Sequence record: PX123008.1
Strand: one strand, 5' to 3'
From: a phage
DNA: 44,682 nucleotides
The translations under genes were made by a program, and so were the position numbers. Positions 3,490 through 43,093 of this stretch are shown one piece after another. The notes under the pieces were generated by a model, which did not search any database, was not told the origin of the DNA, and was given only the letters and a program-made list of their open reading frames with translations. The first letter of the stretch is position 1, and each line of letters begins with the position of its first letter.

Positions 3490-4576
3490 TCAATATATGG
3501 CGGATCGAATGATTCGCCGTCACATCTTCACCCAGCGCCTGAGCAATGACCAGGCGCGTAGGGTGCTGGCTATGTGGGAGAAGTTCCGGCCCACGTTACT
3601 GGGTAAGCTGACCGAGTTACTTGATGGCAGAAAGTCCATGAACAACAAGGCACTTACCACTCTGTTAACGCAACTCGACAAGACCGTTAAATCAGAACTG
3701 CGCACCGAGTTTAAGGCGCTGGCAGAAAGCCTTCAGGAGTTCGCCGACACGGAGGCTGATTATCTTGCTGACACACTAACGGCAGCGATCCAGCCCGCGG
3801 TCGCCGTACCTGCTGTTGAGGTGGTGGGCGTAGTGACCGGCGCGCAGATCGCAGCGACGGCTATGAAAAACCCGTTCCAGGGTAACACCATGATGCAGTG
3901 GCCCGATTCACTTTCCGAGTGGACCAGGACGCAGATCGGCAATCAGGTGCGCGCCGGATTCATCCAGGGCAAGCCGACGATGGAAATTATTGCGGACGTG
4001 AGGCGCGCGCTAGGCGGTCGTAGTGCGCAAGCAATATCAAGCGTTGTTAAGTCCGCGGTCAACCACTATGCGGCGACCGCCCGCGAATTAATGGTAAAAG
4101 CTAATGACGATATTCTCGAAGGTCGCCAATGGTTGGCTACATTGGACACGCATACTTCTCCCATGTGCCAGCTACGCGATCGCCTGTTTTATCCGGTTGA
4201 TGTTACTCCCGACACAAAAGGGAAGCGCGGCGGAAAAGTGGTGGCGGGATCACAATATGGCGCTGGTCCGGGCAAGCTGCATTATTGCTGCCGTTCGACG
4301 GAGACGTGGAAAGTCAAAGGTATGGAATATTGGCCCAGTGGTAAGCGTCCGGCACTGAAGGCTGACGCAGGCAGATTGCTGAGTGAGCAGGTCGACGCGC
4401 AGACTGATTTCTTCTCATGGGTGCAGCGCCAGCCGCGCCATATCCTGGAAGAATTATACGGGGTGCAACGAGCCGACCAGATTATGCGAGGCGTGAAAGT
4501 GCCGAAGATGTTCACCGATACGGGCGAACTAATGACTATTGCGCAGCTTAAAAACAGGGGGCTATGGCGTGATTAA
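3473..4576 (+). CDS. head morphogenesis protein (Mu gpF / SPP1 gp7-like minor head protein)
   Basis: 367 aa overlapping the portal 3' end; conserved position after portal; assignment from memory. Confidence 0.6.
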   Translation: MAKTINQYMADRMIRRHIFTQRLSNDQARRVLAMWEKFRPTLLGKLTELLDGRKSMNNKALTTLLTQLDKTVKSELRTEFKALAESLQEFADTEADYLADTLTAAIQPAVAVPAVEVVGVVTGAQIAATAMKNPFQGNTMMQWPDSLSEWTRTQIGNQVRAGFIQGKPTMEIIADVRRALGGRSAQAISSVVKSAVNHYAATARELMVKANDDILEGRQWLATLDTHTSPMCQLRDRLFYPVDVTPDTKGKRGGKVVAGSQYGAGPGKLHYCCRSTETWKVKGMEYWPSGKRPALKADAGRLLSEQVDAQTDFFSWVQRQPRHILEELYGVQRADQIMRGVKVPKMFTDTGELMTIAQLKNRGLWRD

Positions 4577-6393: not shown

Positions 6394-6416
6394 TTCCTCG
6401 TTGTTGGAGTGCAACC

Positions 6417-6446
6417 AATATAGTGCAACCAATACGAGGATTGCAA
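6417..6446 (-). promoter_or_regulatory. sigma70-like promoter (TTGCAA-N18-TATATT) for the clamp-like gene, with ATTGGTTGCAC motif copies
   Basis: hexamers read directly on the minus strand; downstream leader GGTTGCACTCCAACAACGAGGA then ATG at 6393. Confidence 0.5.
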
Positions 6447-11314: not shown

Positions 11315-11329
11315 TTGGAGAATACTACA

Positions 11330-11692
11330 ATGGCTAAAGCACCACTCTTCACACTTGACCCTAAACCAACCTTTAAGCTGCCGATTGAGATCCCGCGCCC
11401 TGGTGAGAACGAACCCGGCAAGATGACGTTTACCGTACGCCACCGCCCGATCGACGAATTTTCGCAGACCATGCAGGACACTGAGCGCAAGCTATCGGAA
11501 TATGACGACAATGACCCGGACGGCTTTAACGTTATGGTCGAGGCCATCATGCACGTCGCTGAAGGCTGGAACCTGCCGGACGAATTTAACGCGGAGAACG
11601 TCCGCCGCCTGGTGGTCAACTATCCACGTGCGTTCGGTGTGTTCCACACGTCGTACTATCTCGAACTGATGGGATTGCGTGAAAAAAACTAA
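11330..11692 (+). CDS. tail assembly chaperone (lambda gpG-like)
   Basis: 120 aa, acidic, directly upstream of the tape measure gene; ends with slippery heptamer A_AAA_AAC 3 nt before the stop. Confidence 0.65.
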   Translation: MAKAPLFTLDPKPTFKLPIEIPRPGENEPGKMTFTVRHRPIDEFSQTMQDTERKLSEYDDNDPDGFNVMVEAIMHVAEGWNLPDEFNAENVRRLVVNYPRAFGVFHTSYYLELMGLREKN

Positions 11693-12006
11693 TTGAGGCG
11701 GCGCGACGCTTTTATGGCCCGCCGCCACCCTCTGAAGATTTAGCCGCAAGTTTATGGGGTGCGGCCCCCGAAGATGTTTGTCCGCCTGTTGCGCTATGGC
11801 CCGACAACGCGAAGGTAGTCGCAGTCTTCACAGATTGCTCCACGCAATGGCGCACCGGATTTGGTGGCGCATACGGCATCGACTACGGCGTGCTGGAGTG
11901 GTTATTTAAGATGCACGGTATCGAAAACGCGCAACGTGCGTTTAAAGATATCAAGCTAATGGAACGCGTTGCGCTGGATGAAATGGCGCGGCAGAACCCC
12001 GCATAA
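11330..12006 (+). CDS. tail assembly chaperone, -1 frameshift extension product (lambda gpGT-like)
   Basis: slippery A_AAA_AAC at 11683..11689 in the 0 frame; the -1 frame is open from 11689 to the TAA at 12004..12006, about 105 codons. Confidence 0.55.
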
Positions 12007-12010
12007 CGGA

Positions 12011-12327
12011 GCGGGACAGGCGGGACGTCCCGTTTTGTCCCGCACCTCTAAAACTGCATATTTACCCACTTACATTGCATAGATTAAAAGCGGGACAGGG
12101 GTGCTGTCCCGATCTGTCCCACCCCCGAAATGTGAATGTCTATTCAGTTTTCGTGCATAAAACAAACGGGACAGAAAGCGGGACAGAATGAGGCGGGACA
12201 AAGCGGGACAGCACCCCTGTCCCCGCCAGTGCTGCCGCGGGTTTTTAGCCGATCGGGACAGGCGGGACAAGCCCAGTCTTTCAGACTAGACGGGGGTCAT
12301 TGGCCCCCCTCGTCTGAGACTGAATAA
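12011..12327. repeat. iteron cluster A: ~8 direct and 4 inverted GCGGGACA copies plus a conserved ~60-bp terminal hairpin
   Basis: GGGACA at 12013, 12092, 12168, 12180, 12195, 12205, 12255, 12264; TGTCCC at 12036, 12105, 12115, 12218; terminal segment nearly identical to 39366..39430. Confidence 0.85.
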
Positions 12328-12390
12328 GGTTTGTTTTAAATTCGCTGATACAATGACCAACGGCAACTGCATAAAAAGGGGGACTGCATA

Positions 12391-15033
12391 ATGGCAGATC
12401 AGGCAGCGGGCATCACGCTCAAGGCGGACGTCGCGCAAATTAAAACGGCTAATACTGTGCTGGACACATTTGCGCAGAAATCCGAGAACACAGAACAGAA
12501 AGTAAAAAAATTAAACGACACCCTCGGCAAGTCGAAAAAGGTTACTGGCGACGCTGCGGGCGGAATGGAAAAGTTAGCGACTGAATCGCAGCGTGCCGCC
12601 GATGGCATGACGAAACAAGAGCGACTCGCCAGCCGATTAGGCATGTCGACCAAAAACCTGGGATTCGCATCGCGGAACGCCGCATTCCAGTTACAGGATA
12701 TCGCGGTTACGCTTGAGATGGGTATGCCGGTGCACCGCGTTATGCTTCAGCAGCTACCACAGCTTACTGGGGCGTTTGGCGGGTTGGGTAACACACTGCG
12801 TTATGTCGTCGGCACCCTCGGCCCGTTAGGTATCGGCATCGCGGCCTTGACGGCAACGCTTGGCGTAGGGGTGGCAATTACGACCCGCGCAGAGAACCAA
12901 GTGGCGGCGCTTAATAAGACGCTGGCGCTGTCCGGTAATATTTCGGGCCTCACAGCTAACCAGATCCTTGTGCTGTCCGAGAACGCTGAGCGCATGGGCG
13001 GGTCATTTCGCAAGACGCGCGACACAATCCAGGCGCTGGCGGCGGCGGGTGTGAAAGCGGGTGGTGACTTCGGCGCATTGGCTAAGGTAGTTAATGACTT
13101 TGCGAAGGTGTCCAGCCAGCCGATCGAGGATGTGGTAGCGGCGGTGGCGAAGCTGTCAACCGACCCCGTTGGCGGACTGCGTGCGCTGGCGGATAAGTAT
13201 CACGTCGTAAACGAAGCGCAGATCCAGCAGGTACAGTCGCTCGTTGATGCGGGTCGTGAGACAGACGCAGTTGCGTTGGCTAACAAAACAGCCGCTGCGT
13301 CGTTCACCAGCATGACCAATGAGATCAAGGCGAACATGGGTACGCTTGAGCGGTCGATGAACGTCGTCACATCGGCAGCCAAATCGATGTGGGACGCTAT
13401 CCTGGATGTGGGTCGCGCGCAGTCCTCCAATGAATCCGAGATGAAAGCGCGCGAATCACTGCAGCGGCTGACCACGGCTTACTATGCCGAGATGAAAGCG
13501 GTAAACGCTGCCGGTGGGGTAATGACTGAAGCGCAGAAAGCACGTATTAACATGCTTTACAGCGAACTGGTCGCCCAGGAAAAAGTGGTGGCGTCGCTCA
13601 CCCTGCGTAACCGTGCCGAGCGGGACAACGCCAGCGCCGCGGAAGAAGCAGCAAAGGCGAACGAGGAGGCCAACCGCACCGCCCGCGACCGCGCCGCGTT
13701 TGAGAAGGAGTACGCAACCAACGCGAAGCGGCGCGCCGACGAGATCGCCCGCCTCAATTTGCTGAATAAGCGTGGCGTTATTGACGAGAAAGAGCTTGCT
13801 GAGGCGGTGAAGCAGGTCAACGAGCGCTACAAAGACCCGGCACCGAAGAAGGCCGCGGCTGTTCGCGTGGATGCAGGGATGAAAATGCTGGAAGTCGCGC
13901 GCAGCGAACTGGCACAGCTTCGAGAATCAGGCAAGCAGATCGAAGCCAACGCGTCGACGCAGACCCGCACGCAACGCGCTCAAGCGGCCCTAAACAAGCT
14001 GATCGCGGATAATGAGCAGTTAATCGCAGCAAGCAAAGAAAGGGCACTAACGGCAGCAGAAAAGCAGCAGATTGCAGAATTCGGACGCGTGAAGGAAGTA
14101 CGCGAGCAGATCGTCGAAGAAGCCAAATTGCTGGACGCGAAAGAGAAGCAGGTCAAGGCGCACGCGCAGATCGACGCCTTCGTTAAGAACCAGAACGCCG
14201 AGCTAAAAGCCACCGCGGCGGGCTATGCGCTTTCCACTCGCGAAGCGGCAAACCTGCGTGAAGAATTGCAGCTAATTGACCGCCTGAAGCGGGTTGGAGC
14301 TAACGATACTGATATTGATCTGGCGGTATCTAAGCTGCGCGAAGTGCAGGAAGCACAGACCGGTGCTAACGCCTCGCTATGGGATGGCTTCAGCCGCGGG
14401 CTTAAGGATAGCGTGGATGAAATGGGTAACGGCTATACGCAGATGACGTCACTCACAAAATTCACGTTCGGCGCTATGCAGGACACGATGAACGAGTTTT
14501 TTGAGACGGGCAAGCTGAACGCAAAGGATATGGTTAAATCCATCCTGAGCGAATTAATAAAGCTGGCTACCTCGCAGGCATTCAAGTCCATCGTTAGCGC
14601 TTTCGGTGGCGACGGCGGAAAAAACGGATTGTTCGGCGCTATCTTCTCGGGCCTCACTAAGAATGCGGACGGCGGAGCGTACGCAGGAGGCAATCTCGCG
14701 GCATATTCGGGGAAAGTGGTAAGCCAGCCTACCTTTTTCAGTTATGGCGTTCAGGCGTTCGCTAAGGGCGCGGGATTGATGGGCGAGGCTGGACCCGAGG
14801 CCATCATGCCACTGAAGCGCGGGCCGGACGGGAAACTGGGTGTTGCCGCGTCTGGCGCAGGCGGTGGTATGGTCGTGACGACTAACGTTTACACGGGGTC
14901 CGGTAAAACAGATACCAGTGTCAGCGGGCCGGACCCCCGTACCGCGCAGGCGTTCGGCAAGCAAATCACCGAAGCGGTGAAGGCCGAGATCGTGAAAGCG
15001 ACGAAACCGGGTGGTGTACTTTACAAACGATGA
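12391..15033 (+). CDS. tail tape measure protein
   Basis: 880 aa, alanine-rich coiled-coil-like with a glycine-rich C-terminal region; follows the G/GT-like chaperone. Confidence 0.85.
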   Translation: MADQAAGITLKADVAQIKTANTVLDTFAQKSENTEQKVKKLNDTLGKSKKVTGDAAGGMEKLATESQRAADGMTKQERLASRLGMSTKNLGFASRNAAFQLQDIAVTLEMGMPVHRVMLQQLPQLTGAFGGLGNTLRYVVGTLGPLGIGIAALTATLGVGVAITTRAENQVAALNKTLALSGNISGLTANQILVLSENAERMGGSFRKTRDTIQALAAAGVKAGGDFGALAKVVNDFAKVSSQPIEDVVAAVAKLSTDPVGGLRALADKYHVVNEAQIQQVQSLVDAGRETDAVALANKTAAASFTSMTNEIKANMGTLERSMNVVTSAAKSMWDAILDVGRAQSSNESEMKARESLQRLTTAYYAEMKAVNAAGGVMTEAQKARINMLYSELVAQEKVVASLTLRNRAERDNASAAEEAAKANEEANRTARDRAAFEKEYATNAKRRADEIARLNLLNKRGVIDEKELAEAVKQVNERYKDPAPKKAAAVRVDAGMKMLEVARSELAQLRESGKQIEANASTQTRTQRAQAALNKLIADNEQLIAASKERALTAAEKQQIAEFGRVKEVREQIVEEAKLLDAKEKQVKAHAQIDAFVKNQNAELKATAAGYALSTREAANLREELQLIDRLKRVGANDTDIDLAVSKLREVQEAQTGANASLWDGFSRGLKDSVDEMGNGYTQMTSLTKFTFGAMQDTMNEFFETGKLNAKDMVKSILSELIKLATSQAFKSIVSAFGGDGGKNGLFGAIFSGLTKNADGGAYAGGNLAAYSGKVVSQPTFFSYGVQAFAKGAGLMGEAGPEAIMPLKRGPDGKLGVAASGAGGGMVVTTNVYTGSGKTDTSVSGPDPRTAQAFGKQITEAVKAEIVKATKPGGVLYKR

Positions 15034-25150: not shown

Positions 25151-25180
25151 ACTATAGTGCAACCAACCTATTGGTTGCAA
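25151..25180 (-). promoter_or_regulatory. sigma70-like promoter (TTGCAA-N18-TATAGT) overlapping a palindromic TGCAACCAA-N4-TTGGTTGCA site
   Basis: hexamers and the inverted repeat at 25158..25179 read directly. Confidence 0.5.
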
Positions 25181-26823: not shown

Positions 26824-26852
26824 AATATAATGCAACCAATATGATTATGCAA
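26824..26852 (-). promoter_or_regulatory. sigma70-like promoter (TTGCAT-N17-TATATT) with two ATTGGTTGCAT copies
   Basis: hexamers read directly; motif copies at 26831..26840 and 26848..26857. Confidence 0.5.
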
Positions 26853-26857
26853 CCAAT

Positions 26858-29774: not shown

Positions 29775-30053
29775 CTATGCGACCAATTCAGCAACCAATA
29801 AATCGCAGTCGGCTATGTTGTCGATAACGCGAACGTCAGCACCGCGGCGGGCCATTCGCTCATGTTCACGTACCTGGTGCGGCTTCGGTTTTCCGCCTGG
29901 GCGCTTCACTTCGACGAACACTATTATGCCGTTGATGATAATAATCAGGTCGGGCGCACCTGCGCGCCCCTCCCATGCCAGTTTTCGGCAGAATCCGCCA
30001 ACCTCTTTAACCCGTTTCATAAGGTGACGCTGCACCTTGCCTTCTGGTGTCAT
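29775..30053 (-). CDS. VRR-NUC domain nuclease
   Basis: 92 aa, start overlaps the polymerase stop; PDLIII...VEVKRPGGK PD-(D/E)xK-like core. Confidence 0.6.
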   Translation of the reverse strand: MTPEGKVQRHLMKRVKEVGGFCRKLAWEGRAGAPDLIIIINGIIVFVEVKRPGGKPKPHQVREHERMARRGADVRVIDNIADCDLLVAELVA

Positions 30054-33355: not shown

Positions 33356-33420
33356 TTTCCAATTCCTCATTTTCACATGTATCGGGGTTATTGGAAGCCA
33401 CCCCGTTCGGCTTGGTTGCC

Positions 33421-33449
33421 AATTTACTTGGTTGCGCCTGAGCGGTCAA
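33421..33449 (-). promoter_or_regulatory. sigma70-like promoter (TTGACC-N17-TAAATT) for the SSB gene, flanked by GCAACCAAG copies
   Basis: hexamers read directly; motif copies at 33412..33420 and 33428..33436. Confidence 0.45.
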
Positions 33450-36102: not shown

Positions 36103-36338
36103 GGTATATCTCCGATTGGTTAAGTTTAGGTGTCGGCAGTTAACTTCGTCGGTGGCCTTAACATATTGCCAGGTTACGCGTTCTCCCGTTCGGGTAGTGG
36201 ACCTGGTTATATAATCACGGTTGGGAATCCTGACACTTCGATCCGGCCCCTGCGTTGCCCCTCTCCAGTTTGCGTCCTGCATCCTGTCGACGGAGTGAAT
36301 GATAGATTGGTTGCAGGATGGGTGTCAACAACTAATTT

Positions 36339-36503: not shown

Positions 36504-36833
36504 ATGAATGTAAACGACGCAATCGAAATGTTAACGAAGACTGTTTGCAGTGAGACAAGCCGGTCATGGGCTTACACCGATGCCGTGGGGGCGGTGTTAT
36601 TTGAAATCGAACGACTGCGGCTTGCCGAAAAAGAATTGCGCGCCAGGCTGGAACTACTCAATGGTACGGCAGCCAGCAAGCTGCAAAAGCACAATGAAGA
36701 AATGGAAGAATACAAAAAACAGGTTATTCGTTTGCGCGATGAGGGGAAGTCATGGGCGATGATCGCCGAGCTAACCGGAATTAATCAGAGCACCGTGCGA
36801 TCCTGGGTACGCAATAATAAAACCTCTAAGTAA
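36504..36833 (+). CDS. helix-turn-helix DNA-binding protein
   Basis: 109 aa, GAGGA RBS; C-terminal HTH-like segment GKSWAMIAELTGINQSTVRSWVRN preceded by a coiled-coil; directly upstream of the primase-helicase gene. Confidence 0.55.
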   Translation: MNVNDAIEMLTKTVCSETSRSWAYTDAVGAVLFEIERLRLAEKELRARLELLNGTAASKLQKHNEEMEEYKKQVIRLRDEGKSWAMIAELTGINQSTVRSWVRNNKTSK

Positions 36834-36843
36834 GGCAACGGCA

Positions 36844-39108
36844 ATGAGCTTAATTAAATTCGCAGTAACACGACCCGCTAAAAAAGGCGAAAAAGCCAGG
36901 GCGGAAAACTTCCAGATGACCACCGATGAGTTTTTCGAATTTATCAAAGATGCGAAAGAAATCTCCTCGGTGCATATCAACAAGACGGAAGATAAAGCCG
37001 AGTATGCGCGCCGCAAGCGTAAGGCCGATGGCATCGTGGCGTATACCAGTGACGGATTGCGTCGTAAGACCAGTGCGGTGGACCGCTCGATCCTGTTCTT
37101 TGATATTGACCGCACAGACACCCGCACCCTGCGCCGCTGCCGTAAGGCGTTCATCGACGCGGGTCTGGAACACGTATTTCACACCACCACCGGCGATCGC
37201 CACCCGCTGAAGGGCGGCACGCGTTGCGCCCGTTTCCTGGTGCTCACTGACAAGCCTGTACCGGCTGAAGACCTGGGCCGCGTCCAGTATGCACTATTAC
37301 ACCAACTCGGCCTGTCAGATGTGGACTTCGATGATTGCACGAAAGACACAAACCGCCTTATGTACCTGCCTCACCAGCAATCGGTTGTTAAGTGTCACTA
37401 CGGCAAACGTGCCCGCGTCCGTCGTCTGCTTCGCCTGGCGGATAAGCTGGGAGTGAAAAAAGAGGAAGTACGCCGCGAATTAACCCAGGGCGATGACGGC
37501 GTGGCGGACGGCATTCTGGATTGGTGCTTCCAGGCAGGATTCGAACCGCTGTCGTCCGGTCGTGGTTATGAAGTGCCGTGCCCTAACGAACACCTGCACA
37601 GCGGCGAAGGGTCCACCGCTATCATGGTTAAGGATGGCGAGATCCGTTTCAAGTGTATGCACACCGGCAACGAGTGTTGCTCGGAACTGAATAGACACCA
37701 GCACCTGGCGCTACGTCTTATCGGGATCCCGGACCACCTGAACGTCGAACCGCACAACATGTCCCGCAAGCAAATCGCCGCCATCCTTCCGGGACTGGAC
37801 GACGAGGAAGTGGAATCGTGCTATGAACATATCGTTGATGCTGTTGGCGACGGCGAAGAATACGGCGTGTGCACCGATGCGGATCTGGATAACGAGCCGG
37901 TAGCGCTGTTTAGCAAGCACGACCCGATCATCGAGGGGCTGATTAACTTTAAATCGACCTGGTATCTTGCCGGTGAGTCGAACATCGGTAAGTCGTTCTA
38001 TGTGCTGGGCCAGATGGCGTCCGTATCTGCCGGTATCCCGTTTGGCGGTGCGAAGGTCGTCCAGTGCCATAACTTCTATTTCGACGCGGAAGGTGGTGAA
38101 GCCTCCAACCAGCGTAAGGAAGCATTGCAGATCAAATATGAGCACGACCTGGACAAGCTGCACATTATCGATCTGCAATCACGCGGCTGGGATATCACCA
38201 GCAAATCCGGCTTGCGTGAAGTTATCAGCTTCATCAACCGCACCGCTAACGGCGAACCGGTTGGCCTGGTGGCGTTCGACTCACTCAACCAGACTGTTGC
38301 GCTGCGGTCCGCCGATGCGAAGCCGTTCGACGAGAACAACGCCAGCGATATGGGCGAAGTGGTCAAAGCGCTGAAGGCCATCGCGGAAAATACAGGCGGC
38401 AGTGCGGGCGTCATCCACCACCCGGCGAAAGGTGCAAACGGCAGCAGAACGCCACGCGGGTCCGGCGCGCTTCATGGTGCTGTCGATTCTGCGTTCTTCC
38501 TGGAGCAACCGGACGACAATCAGCCCGGCCAATTGAACCTGTATCACGAGAAGGCACGTAACGGCATCAAGCAAGCGCCGCGCGGCTTCGTCCTGCTCAA
38601 GTGCAAGGTTAAGGTGGATCTCCGCAAGTCCGAAGCGTTCGAAGCCCACCAGTCCGCCAGCACCGGGCCGGACTTCGGCGATGTGGTTGCCGGTTGGGAC
38701 GTCAAGCCAATCGCATCCACGCCACGCGACGAGACTCTTTACCTCGTACCGGTCGCCCTGGCACCGTTCGCTATCGAACAGGCAAAGGCCGCTGGCAAAG
38801 CAGCAGTTAAGGAAGAGAACGCCGCAGGACCGCGCAACGAAAAAGAGAAAGTGCTTTATGCGGCGCTGGAAAAACTGATGGAAGATAACCCGGACCATAC
38901 CGGATTCAGTAAGTCGGCAATTGTCCGCCAGGCTGGACTGGCGAAAGGCGGCACATCGACGAAGGCAATCGACGATATGGTCGAGCGCGGCGTACTCGGT
39001 TTTTATACAGATCCGCACACCGGGGCCATCTATGGGTCGTCTAATATCGTCATAAAAACGAATATACCCATCACGCTTTCGGCGACCGATGACGACCTGA
39101 AAGATTAA
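36844..39108 (+). CDS. primase-helicase (AEP-type primase-polymerase domain + P-loop helicase domain)
   Basis: 754 aa; N-terminal ILFFDIDRTD acidic motif; central Walker A LAGESNIGKS and Walker B-like VAFDSL. Confidence 0.75.
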   Translation: MSLIKFAVTRPAKKGEKARAENFQMTTDEFFEFIKDAKEISSVHINKTEDKAEYARRKRKADGIVAYTSDGLRRKTSAVDRSILFFDIDRTDTRTLRRCRKAFIDAGLEHVFHTTTGDRHPLKGGTRCARFLVLTDKPVPAEDLGRVQYALLHQLGLSDVDFDDCTKDTNRLMYLPHQQSVVKCHYGKRARVRRLLRLADKLGVKKEEVRRELTQGDDGVADGILDWCFQAGFEPLSSGRGYEVPCPNEHLHSGEGSTAIMVKDGEIRFKCMHTGNECCSELNRHQHLALRLIGIPDHLNVEPHNMSRKQIAAILPGLDDEEVESCYEHIVDAVGDGEEYGVCTDADLDNEPVALFSKHDPIIEGLINFKSTWYLAGESNIGKSFYVLGQMASVSAGIPFGGAKVVQCHNFYFDAEGGEASNQRKEALQIKYEHDLDKLHIIDLQSRGWDITSKSGLREVISFINRTANGEPVGLVAFDSLNQTVALRSADAKPFDENNASDMGEVVKALKAIAENTGGSAGVIHHPAKGANGSRTPRGSGALHGAVDSAFFLEQPDDNQPGQLNLYHEKARNGIKQAPRGFVLLKCKVKVDLRKSEAFEAHQSASTGPDFGDVVAGWDVKPIASTPRDETLYLVPVALAPFAIEQAKAAGKAAVKEENAAGPRNEKEKVLYAALEKLMEDNPDHTGFSKSAIVRQAGLAKGGTSTKAIDDMVERGVLGFYTDPHTGAIYGSSNIVIKTNIPITLSATDDDLKD

Positions 39109-39183
39109 ATTTTGCGCGCGTTGGTTGCCGATATGGGAATTCCCATATCGCTAAAAGATTAATTTGTGCGCGCGTTGGTTGCC
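39101..39183. repeat. imperfect ~29-bp direct repeats bracketing a perfect 22-bp palindrome
   Basis: aagattaaattttgcgcgcgttggttgcc (39101..39129) and aagattaatttgtgcgcgcgttggttgcc (39155..39183) flank cgatatgggaattcccatatcg (39129..39150); the first repeat includes the primase stop codon. Confidence 0.85.
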
Positions 39184-39250
39184 ATTTTGAGTGTTTTTAG
39201 TTGGTCGCATTGGTTGCCGTGTAGTGTGAATATAATGAATAGTTATGCAA

Positions 39251-39430
39251 TAAAACTGCATAAACTAAGCGGGACAGAAAGCGGGACAAACAAGGGGCGG
39301 GACAAAGCGGGACAGCACCCCCTGTCCCGCCCGGATGGCGCGGCCTGGAGAGGAGCGGGACAAGCGGGACAAAGCCCAGTCTTTCAGACTAGACGGGGGT
39401 CAACGGCCCCCCTCGTCTGAGACTGAATAA
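39251..39430. repeat. iteron cluster B: 6 direct and 1 inverted GCGGGACA copies plus the conserved ~60-bp terminal hairpin
   Basis: GGGACA at 39271, 39283, 39299, 39309, 39357, 39366; TGTCCC at 39323; 39366..39430 nearly identical to 12264..12327. Confidence 0.85.
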
Positions 39431-39585
39431 AATCCGGAGATTGCAAAATACACGGCAGCATGATGCGAAGTGCGGTCGCGGATGAACTAGGCAACCAATG
39501 CTAGTTGCATTATGCGGAGTGGAAAACGCAGTTTGCAGTTACAGCAGATAGCGATCAACTTTTTCATGCGCGTGATTAATATTGG

Positions 39586-39614
39586 TTGCATTCACCCCGG
39601 CACCCTGCTATATT
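39586..39614 (+). promoter_or_regulatory. sigma70-like promoter (TTGCAT-N17-TATATT) with ATTGGTTGCA copies and a conserved leader
   Basis: hexamers read directly; leader GGTTGCACACCAACATGAGGA then ATG at 39643. Confidence 0.55.
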
Positions 39615-39642
39615 GGTTGCACACCAACATGAGGACTGAACA

Positions 39643-39840
39643 ATGGAACACGAAGACCTGGTCGACGAATTGCTTGAGCTGATTGAGGCTGAGAACAAAG
39701 CCGATTTGCAAGCACGCGCAGCATACATGGTCGGCAACATTAAGAAATCGCGCCACTACGCCGGATTGCGTGTAAAGGCGCAAGAGGCATTGCTGCAATT
39801 CCTGGACAGCGTAACCATCACGAAGAGGACTGAACGATGA
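39643..39840 (+). CDS. hypothetical early protein
   Basis: 65 aa, GAGGA RBS, first gene after the consensus-like promoter. Confidence 0.5.
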   Translation: MEHEDLVDELLELIEAENKADLQARAAYMVGNIKKSRHYAGLRVKAQEALLQFLDSVTITKRTER

Positions 39841-43032: not shown

Positions 43033-43061
43033 TTGACTTGCAACCAATTAATAGCTCATAC
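43033..43061 (+). promoter_or_regulatory. putative promoter (TTGACT-N17-TCATAC) containing TGCAACCAAT
   Basis: good -35, weak -10; followed by leader GCGACCAATCAACGAGAGGAG and a 26-codon ORF. Confidence 0.35.
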
Positions 43062-43093
43062 TGCGACCAATCAACGAGAGGAGTGGTAAACTA

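Follow-up and report, generated by a model that had tools for sequence, protein, structure and literature searches.

Element B is a repeat-rich segment at positions 39225-39445 of PX123008.1, a phage genome of 44,682 nucleotides (nt) that was analyzed over its full length (the window). It lies between the stop codon of a gene for a primase-helicase of 754 amino acids (39106-39108) and the next + strand gene (39643). We consider it probable that the phage starts replication at element B and that the multidomain protein encoded upstream is its own initiator. The argument is built on direct observations, namely the repeats and their duplication, the domain folds of the protein, the order of gene and array, the joint change of repeat unit and recognition helix, and a hairpin that partners the array. 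An iteron origin beside its initiator gene was the core idea of a preliminary description of this DNA, and comparison with other phages supported it strongly, through both the position of the arrays and the co-change of unit and protein.

Repeat structure of element B

The genome belongs to a Dhillonvirus (HK578 / SSL-2009a / SO-1 group, E. coli siphoviruses) and is complete-genome-sized. The region of the element was matched by 159 phage records at 76-94% identity. The octamer GCGGGACA occurs 17 times in the genome against 2.1 copies expected, a count reached by none of 100 shuffled sequences, and 14 of the 17 copies fall into two clusters, elements A and B. Element B and the gene that precedes it have the following parts.

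39225..39268, unstranded: A+T-rich leader of element B, tgtgaatataatgaatagttatgcaataaaactgcataaactaa, containing TATAAT at 39231-39236
39269..39371, unstranded: iteron array of element B, GCGGGACA on the + strand at 39269, 39281, 39297, 39307, 39355 and 39364, and on the - strand at 39323
39377..39425, unstranded: terminal imperfect hairpin of element B, 49 nt, CAGTCTTTCAGACTAGACGGGGG-tcaac-GGCCCCCCTCGTCTGAGACTG
36844..39108, + strand: primase-helicase, 754 amino acids, proposed initiator
38839..39054, + strand: region coding for the winged helix (residues ~666-737), with the predicted recognition helix GTSTKAIDDMVER at residues 703-715

The leader is followed by four direct units, an inverted unit, a 24-bp spacer, two abutting direct units, and the 49-nt imperfect hairpin. 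The six direct units and the inverted one had been described before and were confirmed by position; the distance of about 140 bp from the primase-helicase stop codon was also correct. A palindrome, GGGCGGGACA..GCGGGACAGCACCCCCTGTCCCGCCC (39295-39332), arises from the fourth direct unit together with the inverted one, with folding energies of -26.2 kcal/mol as RNA and -19.8 kcal/mol as DNA. The inner palindrome reads GCGGGACAGCACCCCCTGTCCCGC, and its core, CGGGACA(g)CACCCC..TGTCCCG, also occurs in distant helicase loci. The terminal hairpin folds as RNA with -27.9 kcal/mol (z -3.1).

The leader is a candidate DNA-unwinding element. A+T-rich stretches flank the arrays of both elements in the sequence, at 39225-39268 for B and at 12044-12089 and 12124-12166 for A. 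The leader motif GAATAGTTATGCA was also detected beside the arrays of Salmonella phage vB_STM-ZS and of one Kagunavirus.

A further feature precedes the leader. Positions 39100-39183 contain a 54-bp tandem duplication (AAAGATTAA.TTTGCGCGCGTTGGTTGCC) around a perfect 22-bp palindrome, CGATATGGGAATTCCCATATCG (39129-39150). Of 15 Dhillonvirus B regions, only 6 have the duplication, which is therefore an indel polymorphism.

Linkage of the array to the helicase gene

The IMG/VR collection was scanned for two nearby GCGGGACA units. This motif-first search yielded at least 120 loci, 56 of them with clusters of at least five units. These loci spanned 34% to 72% in GC content and, with few exceptions, bore no DNA-level resemblance to this genome. 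The primase-helicase was the only protein of this genome that recurred beside the arrays (20 loci by BLASTP; 26 of the 56 by hidden Markov model), with about 25% identity in the helicase core. At these loci, the array starts 0-60 bp after the stop codon or overlaps the last codons. Taken together, this genome, its relatives, and the distant phages place the array 0-160 bp past the 3' end of the helicase gene. In hundreds of phage contigs unrelated to this one, gene and array have the same layout. The array is still present where the gene encodes a helicase-only protein of 380-420 amino acids with just the C-terminal domain.

The linkage was also approached from the protein. Using a six-sequence helicase alignment as the query, 79 distant helicase relatives were picked on protein similarity alone; more than 583 such relatives are present in IMG/VR. 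At least four copies of CGGGACA were found within 500 bp downstream of the gene in 39 of the 79, and at least two copies upstream in none. Most of the remaining relatives carry 5-11 downstream copies of a related heptamer, namely CCGGACA, CGTAACA, CGCAACA, CGTGACA, TCCGACA or GGGGACA. In Rhizobium phage 16-3 (locus L272, 3540-3915; NC_011103, ~56239-56614), about 12 GCGTGACA units, direct and inverted, extend from the stop codon of the p101 primase/helicase gene. This unit is one base away from GCGGGACA, and the array, which is unannotated in the record, ends in a G/C-rich palindrome between inverted units. In architecture the locus matches the present phage.

In closer relatives, the unit changed together with the protein. 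A relative with 69% identity to the 754-residue protein retains GCGGGACA and the same hairpin. At 44-49% identity, GGGGGAGA, ACTCGCAA or other units occupy the same place, each followed by a different hairpin. Salmonella phage vB_STM-ZS (locus L124, 4798-5165; MZ004649, ~4020-4385) has a GGGGGAGA array of direct and inverted units and a hairpin after its 44%-identical primase-helicase. The 44-49% relatives show 63-76% identity in the helicase core versus 25-35% in residues 671-730, and the start of the recognition helix changes from GGTSTK to SGNYKK, GGDRYK or GGKRRP. In the distant family, KAFxRA pairs with (C/G)GGACA units and TWxRT with (T/C)AACA units. Such a joint change of unit and helix is the pattern expected if initiator-specific iterons are read by the C-terminal domain.

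CGGGACA arrays were also encountered in other settings. Arrays in one orientation lie inside genes for winged-helix initiators of ~250 amino acids that precede Toprim/DnaB-type helicases, which is the arrangement of lambda O. These loci (L052 1221-1372, L057 10764-10905, L075 2147-2290, and about ten more) have 3 + 4 units at 11-12 bp spacing, and the arrays encode SGT/AGQ/RDS linker peptides. Clusters of the same unit were also found directly after a Toprim_3 + D5_N + DUF5906 gene (P4-alpha-like), directly after a Zn_Ribbon_Prim/Toprim gene, and inside a DUF1376 gene (L095 4052-4248, L036 8798-9153, L119 3118-3216). Several unrelated initiator architectures thus have one iteron sequence in common, and the motif is tied to replication modules generally.

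The proposed initiator

The primase-helicase consists of an AEP primase (residues 1-~205), a Cys/His zinc module (~240-290), a RepA-type AAA_25 helicase (357-531), a winged helix (~666-737), and an acidic tail, DDDLKD. The PHROGs label is replicative helicase-primase. Pfam recognized the AAA_25 (RepA-type) core at 357-531 only; it gave no Toprim match in the protein, and the helicase was assigned to the AAA_25 / RepA type and not to SF3 (D5-like). The profile match of the helicase in the PDB was RSF1010 RepA; a PDB sequence search with the single 754-residue protein returned nothing, and neither did a protein database search with the C-terminal 174 residues alone. An AlphaFold model of residues 1-345 (predicted local distance difference test score 83.5) matched the AEP primases LigD/Prim-PolC and the eukaryotic/archaeal PriS. 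Residues D87, D89, D118, and H120 are invariant in 26 homologues, as is the Cys/His cluster C246, H252, C271, H273, and C279. Judged by the modelled folds, the protein unites in one chain three activities that in RSF1010 reside on separate proteins, RepB', RepA, and RepC, and its C-terminal winged helix is the proposed iteron-binding module.

We infer the following sequence of events. The C-terminal winged helix would bind the GCGGGACA units, and the combination of direct and inverted units would arrange protein assemblies in opposite orientations over the palindromic core. The RepA-type helicase ring would open the A+T-rich leader and/or extrude the G/C-rich hairpin. More speculatively, the N-terminal AEP primase might then make the first primers, and the hairpin might serve at this last step as a sequence-specific entry, loading or priming site, in the manner of RSF1010 ssiA/ssiB with RepB' or of the pRN1 stem-loop. 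Element A, equally speculatively, might be another origin, or might act in cis as a partner or pause site in the way of P4 crr or SPP1 oriR.

The terminal hairpin

Repeats and hairpin are both conserved in homologous genomes, in the Dhillonvirus B regions as well as in the 69%-identical relative. Of the 37 columns of the hairpin stems, 35 show no variation across 15 Dhillonvirus B regions, and no other intergenic part is as well conserved. The invariant fraction is 71% in the iteron units, 45% in the spacers between them, and 38% at the hairpin apex. A 20-mer from the 5' side of the hairpin was found in IMG/VR only in Dhillonvirus contigs of ~44 kb, mostly in two copies on the same strand; three contigs gave one match. 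The A and B loops of one genome differ in 9 of 12 genomes, with invariant stems. The conservation is therefore not just homogenization of the two copies.

It had been proposed that differences confined to the loop reflect selection on the stem. The differences are indeed confined to the loop. The suggested covariation check across relatives, however, gave no compensatory change in 14 distinct hairpin variants with near-invariant stems. What the data show is sequence constraint on both arms of the hairpin; they give no evidence of selection for pairing as such.

Hairpins of this kind accompany the array outside the genus. When 74 distant loci were compared, the 50-nt segment with the strongest hairpin was located 3' of the helicase gene in 70 (median -19.6 versus -12.8 kcal/mol inside the gene, p 5e-13). 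It typically consists of an iteron, a C-run, a 4-nt A/T center, a G-run, and an inverted iteron. A strong G/C-rich hairpin is a general part of the gene-array module.

Element A and the duplication

Element A resembles B over 12130-12345, and contains a part that B lacks.

12167..12269, unstranded: iteron array of element A aligning with that of B, (C)GGGACA on the + strand at 12167, 12178, 12193, 12203, 12254 and 12262, and a degenerate inverted unit at 12216-12223
12274..12322, unstranded: terminal hairpin of element A, 49 nt, identical to that of B save two loop bases
12011..12122, unstranded: extra upstream part of element A, with iteron palindromes at 12011-12043 (GCGGGACAGGCGGGACGTCCCGTTTTGTCCCGC) and 12090-12122 (GCGGGACAGGGGTGCTGTCCCGATCTGTCCCAC) and A+T-rich DNA between them

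Aligned with 39225-39445, the segment 12130-12345 is 86% identical. The view of B as a second copy of A thus held, and the duplicated segment proved longer than first claimed. The near-identity of the two hairpins was also borne out; they differ at two loop bases (TCATTGG in A, TCAACGG in B) instead of about three, and a 1-nt indel lies outside, just 5' of the hairpin. The statement that both elements begin with taaaactgcata needed correction. The motif is present in both, but the copy of A (12049-12060) belongs to the extra module, about 115 nt before the aligned segment, and that of B aligns with ttttcgtgcataaaa of A. Open reading frames at 39166-39420 and 12136-12327 were considered as genes and rejected. 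The copies are in different frames owing to the 1-nt indel, the frame is interrupted in some relatives, and the peptides are iteron-encoded low complexity.

The palindromes at 12011-12043 and 12090-12122 have no counterpart in B. The upstream palindromes of A form with 12192-12223 a 32-nt inverted repeat, 91% complementary, around the A+T-rich 12124-12166. Element A occupies a 384-bp gap from the end of a tail-chaperone extension frame (12006) to the tape-measure start (12391), and its upstream part begins 5 bp past the frame end. The counterpart of 12021-12038 is annotated as a rho-independent terminator in the HK578 record. The frame itself (11692-12006) is a homologue of SO-1 gp16 / HK578_016 (DUF1799). 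It has no start codon before 11890, which fits a frameshift extension of the tail chaperone at 11315-11692.

Nearly all of the 159 Dhillonvirus records retain both copies (352 and 417 places). Salmonella phage vB_STM-ZS has a single cluster and no tail-gene copy. Since the position of B is common to all relatives and vB_STM-ZS is without the second copy, B is the ancestral one, and on these comparisons A appears to be a Dhillonvirus-level duplication of it. The variant forms of the last two units are mosaic between A and B, which suggests occasional exchange between the two. A lineage at 69% identity (L255 / L147; IMGVR_UViG_3300045988_050407, ENA k141_244659) has retained GCGGGACA as well as the hairpin, in which TCAGACTG replaces GAGACTG. 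Its 44-kb contig gave only one match to the hairpin 20-mer, so the A copy may be missing there.

A separate motif, ACTGCATAA, has three copies in the genome versus 0.25 expected. Two stand directly 5' of the tape-measure start codon (12366-12391) and one in the B leader (39255-39263). Most relatives have an additional copy after the B hairpin (GAGACTGCATAAAATCC).

Points against the origin reading

Several observations weigh against element B as an origin fired by the upstream protein. The spacing of its units is irregular (12, 16, 10, 15, 33, and 9 bp). Neither A nor B is marked by GC or AT skew; both skews follow the direction of transcription only and are therefore uninformative for an origin. 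Among the 18 predicted pairs of the hairpin, all essentially invariant, there is no compensatory change that would speak for structure over sequence, and any role of the hairpin is conjectural. By eye, the alignment of the Dhillonvirus winged helix with the C-terminal domain of the distant helicases showed no detectable similarity, and none was found between the latter and the lambda-O-like initiators (hhalign probability 0.1). The shared iteron is thus not explicable by one demonstrably homologous reader. The type of a small helix-turn-helix (HTH) gene next to the primase-helicase switches in the same lineages as the unit, which makes its product a confounded alternative binder. Finally, the good support for an origin comes from comparison, and binding of the repeats by the protein is predicted.

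A neighboring HTH gene and its possible operator

36504..36833, + strand: small HTH protein, 109 amino acids, directly 5' of the primase-helicase gene, Pfam HTH_23 / Sigma70_r4_2

All relatives have a small HTH gene at this place, and its type, HTH_23 versus HTH_3, is what switches where the unit does. A second motif, ATTGGTTGC, is also enriched in the genome (33 copies with at most one mismatch versus 12.9 expected). Most copies are paired and intergenic, and the motif flanks element B on both sides. Its sites are at 6411-6433, 25159-25178, 26832-26857, 29779-29799, 33411-33435, 36306-36314, 39120-39620 (six), and 43040-43071. One pair overlaps a promoter-like TTGCAT-17-TATATT at ~39587-39615, and relatives have GTTGGCCGC, GTTGGCAGC or ATGTTGGCTGC at the corresponding positions. 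The motif is probably a separate operator or promoter element, perhaps read by the small HTH protein. The GCGGGACA unit, clustered in A and B whereas ATTGGTTGC is scattered over intergenic DNA, is thus not a general transcription signal.

Alternative explanations

The confounding described above makes room for a different binder. The iterons of the origin could be bound by the small HTH protein as a separate, RepC-like initiator that recruits the primase-helicase, leaving the winged helix for another role, e.g., protein contacts as in RPA32C. We regard this as unlikely. At the distant GCGGGACA-array loci, no homologue of the small HTH protein recurs and the helicase alone does; the helicase-only proteins of 380-420 amino acids with the C-terminal domain keep the array; and the helix of the helicase tracks the unit. 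The ATTGGTTGC sites, which lie over promoter-like regions, would be a more natural target for a small HTH regulator.

Transcriptional punctuation is a still weaker candidate, and we think it improbable. The hairpins would act as terminators or as RNA-stabilizing 3' ends of the primase-helicase and tail-chaperone messages, and the repeats as sites for a regulator or antiterminator. Both elements do sit between co-directional genes at operon-like boundaries, iteron palindromes are annotated as terminators in CS16 and HK578, and the hairpins are stable as RNA. A terminator scan of 38900-39800, however, found no sites in B, and in A there were no matches relevant to the + strand. The terminal hairpins are not followed by a U-tract, their tails being GAATAAAATCC and GAATAAGGTTTG. 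Drift in a terminator should have left compensatory changes, and the stems are invariant instead. Nor does punctuation account for the presence of the array behind helicase genes of unrelated phages with other neighbors, or for the way the unit tracks the C-terminus of the helicase.

The preliminary description had allowed for a stable RNA, which would be a small non-coding or repeat-rich protein-sponge RNA running from the TATAAT box to the hairpin. The box is where it was said to be (39231-39236), the terminal hairpin is stable, and GGGA-containing repeats could in principle titrate an RNA-binding protein. The box, however, has no -35 partner. A sigma-70 promoter scan around it gave no match, and many relatives have TATAGT or TAAGTG in its place. 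Rfam 15 gave no match at gathering score in the whole genome and none at E<=1 in 39100-39660, a tRNA/tmRNA scan found nothing, and neither covariation nor a U-tract terminator in B was seen. Relatives retain the architecture with wholly different units that track the DNA-binding helix. These results leave the RNA reading with very little probability.

Just as improbable is the view that the two elements are signals for packaging or for genome ends, or that they are copied from a small mobile element: although the segment is duplicated and several assemblies in public databases begin or stop exactly within one of them (ends of LR990702, OX460974, NC_073065, and PV610739; start of IMGVR_UViG_3300045988_009799), the terminase genes lie elsewhere, at the start of the genome record, the positions of A and B are fixed across the genus, the record ends vary between isolates, most likely through assembly breaks at the 200-bp repeat, and no terminal inverted repeats or target duplications surround the 200-bp unit. 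A BLAST search of element B against E. coli genomes and plasmids gave no meaningful match; B is therefore neither host-derived nor plasmid-borne.

Comparison with known replicons

An origin at element B with its initiator encoded upstream would share features with several replicons. P4 alpha likewise unites primase, hexameric helicase, and a C-terminal winged helix in one polypeptide, where in P4 the winged helix is the origin binder, and P4 also has two separated clusters of sites (PMC4234260 and general knowledge; in the present phage the binding is predicted). The binding sites of P4 alpha are 8-bp units (PMC4234260 and general knowledge), and GCGGGACA is an octamer too. In contrast, P4 alpha has a Toprim primase, an SF3 helicase, and the unit TGTTCACC, whereas here we found an AEP fold, a RepA/AAA_25 helicase, GCGGGACA, and a conserved hairpin ending each cluster. 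P4 alpha and pRN1 ORF904 unite the same three activities through different domains (PMC4234260).

With RSF1010, the phage shares a RepA-family helicase and a RepB'-like AEP primase, both present in the 754-residue protein. RSF1010 has three separate proteins, and its two ssi hairpins occupy opposite strands of a single origin; in the present phage, the domains are fused, each element has one hairpin, and the elements are 27 kb apart in the same orientation.

The gene order resembles that of pRN1 ORF904 and Bordetella phage BIP-1, in which a small DNA-binding regulator gene is followed by a gene for an AEP primase-helicase-winged-helix protein with the origin, here predicted, on its 3' side (PMC4234260, PMC3869888). 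Origins of the pRN1 / BIP-1 type include an essential stem-loop (PMC4234260, PMC3869888); in the present phage a stem-loop likewise lies 3' of the gene. ORF904, however, has an SF3 helicase, and its stem-loop origin of ~100 nt is described without iterons; the present helicase is of RepA type, and iterons dominate.

The layout of A and B recalls oriL and oriR of SPP1, two similar elements of repeats and A+T-rich DNA, one at the initiator gene and the other interrupting the order of late structural genes, which is otherwise conserved (PMC6316719). The distal SPP1 copy has been proposed to stall forks and so trigger the theta-to-sigma switch (PMC6316719). SPP1 gp38 is a separate replisome organizer whose partners are a loader and a DnaB-type helicase, and gene 38 itself contains oriL. 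The likeness seen is one of layout.

A wider reading would join these lines, and we offer it tentatively, as possible but on the doubtful side. A helicase with a C-terminal winged helix, a 3' CNNNACA array, and a G/C hairpin would form a widespread, self-contained, and exchangeable replication cassette with a helix-iteron code (KAFxRA for GGACA, TWxRT for (T/C)AACA). The GCGGGACA array would also serve at least four further initiator architectures (lambda-O-like, P4-alpha-like, Zn-ribbon/Toprim, and DUF1376). The invariant 49-nt hairpin of Dhillonviruses would give the AEP primase its point of entry or priming, and A would be either a second origin or a partner that pauses forks and thereby sets the mode of replication.

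Relation to earlier annotation

The repeat itself is not new. The record of Sodalis phage SO-1 (GQ502199 / NC_013600) contains orthologous DNA, 88-90% identical, and already labels both places as repeat regions, 'region A' and 'region B', with the wording 'direct, inverted and palindromic repeat sequences; sequence similarity with region A/B', followed by a function introduced as 'possible'. This is a database note only, which, unlike the present analysis, makes no link to protein domains or to other phage groups. The small iteron palindromes are marked as terminators in CS16 and HK578 and as repeat_region in other records. In the literature library that was searched, no paper on the SO-1 regions or on Dhillonvirus origins turned up, and a search by motif string returned primer noise only. 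New here are the domain model, the array 3' of the relatives' genes with a unit that tracks the protein, the family-wide linkage, and the hairpin as companion of the array. The combination of domains and the architecture differ from those of P4, RSF1010, and pRN1; the kind of system, an iteron origin beside a multifunctional initiator, is known.

Implications

Dhillonviruses are common E. coli phages that are represented in the BASEL collection and used in therapy and engineering, and their replication origin has so far been undefined. Knowing the origin and the domain that reads it would give a handle for minimal replicons and phage engineering, would help to interpret defence systems that target replication, and would account for assembly breaks at the 200-bp repeat. 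The rule that the array follows the gene may allow origins to be predicted from sequence alone in hundreds of uncultured phages, and it would supply many natural protein-DNA pairs from which the site choice of winged helices could be learned. The dual-copy layout would make the questions raised by P4 ori/crr and SPP1 oriL/oriR testable in an easy E. coli system.

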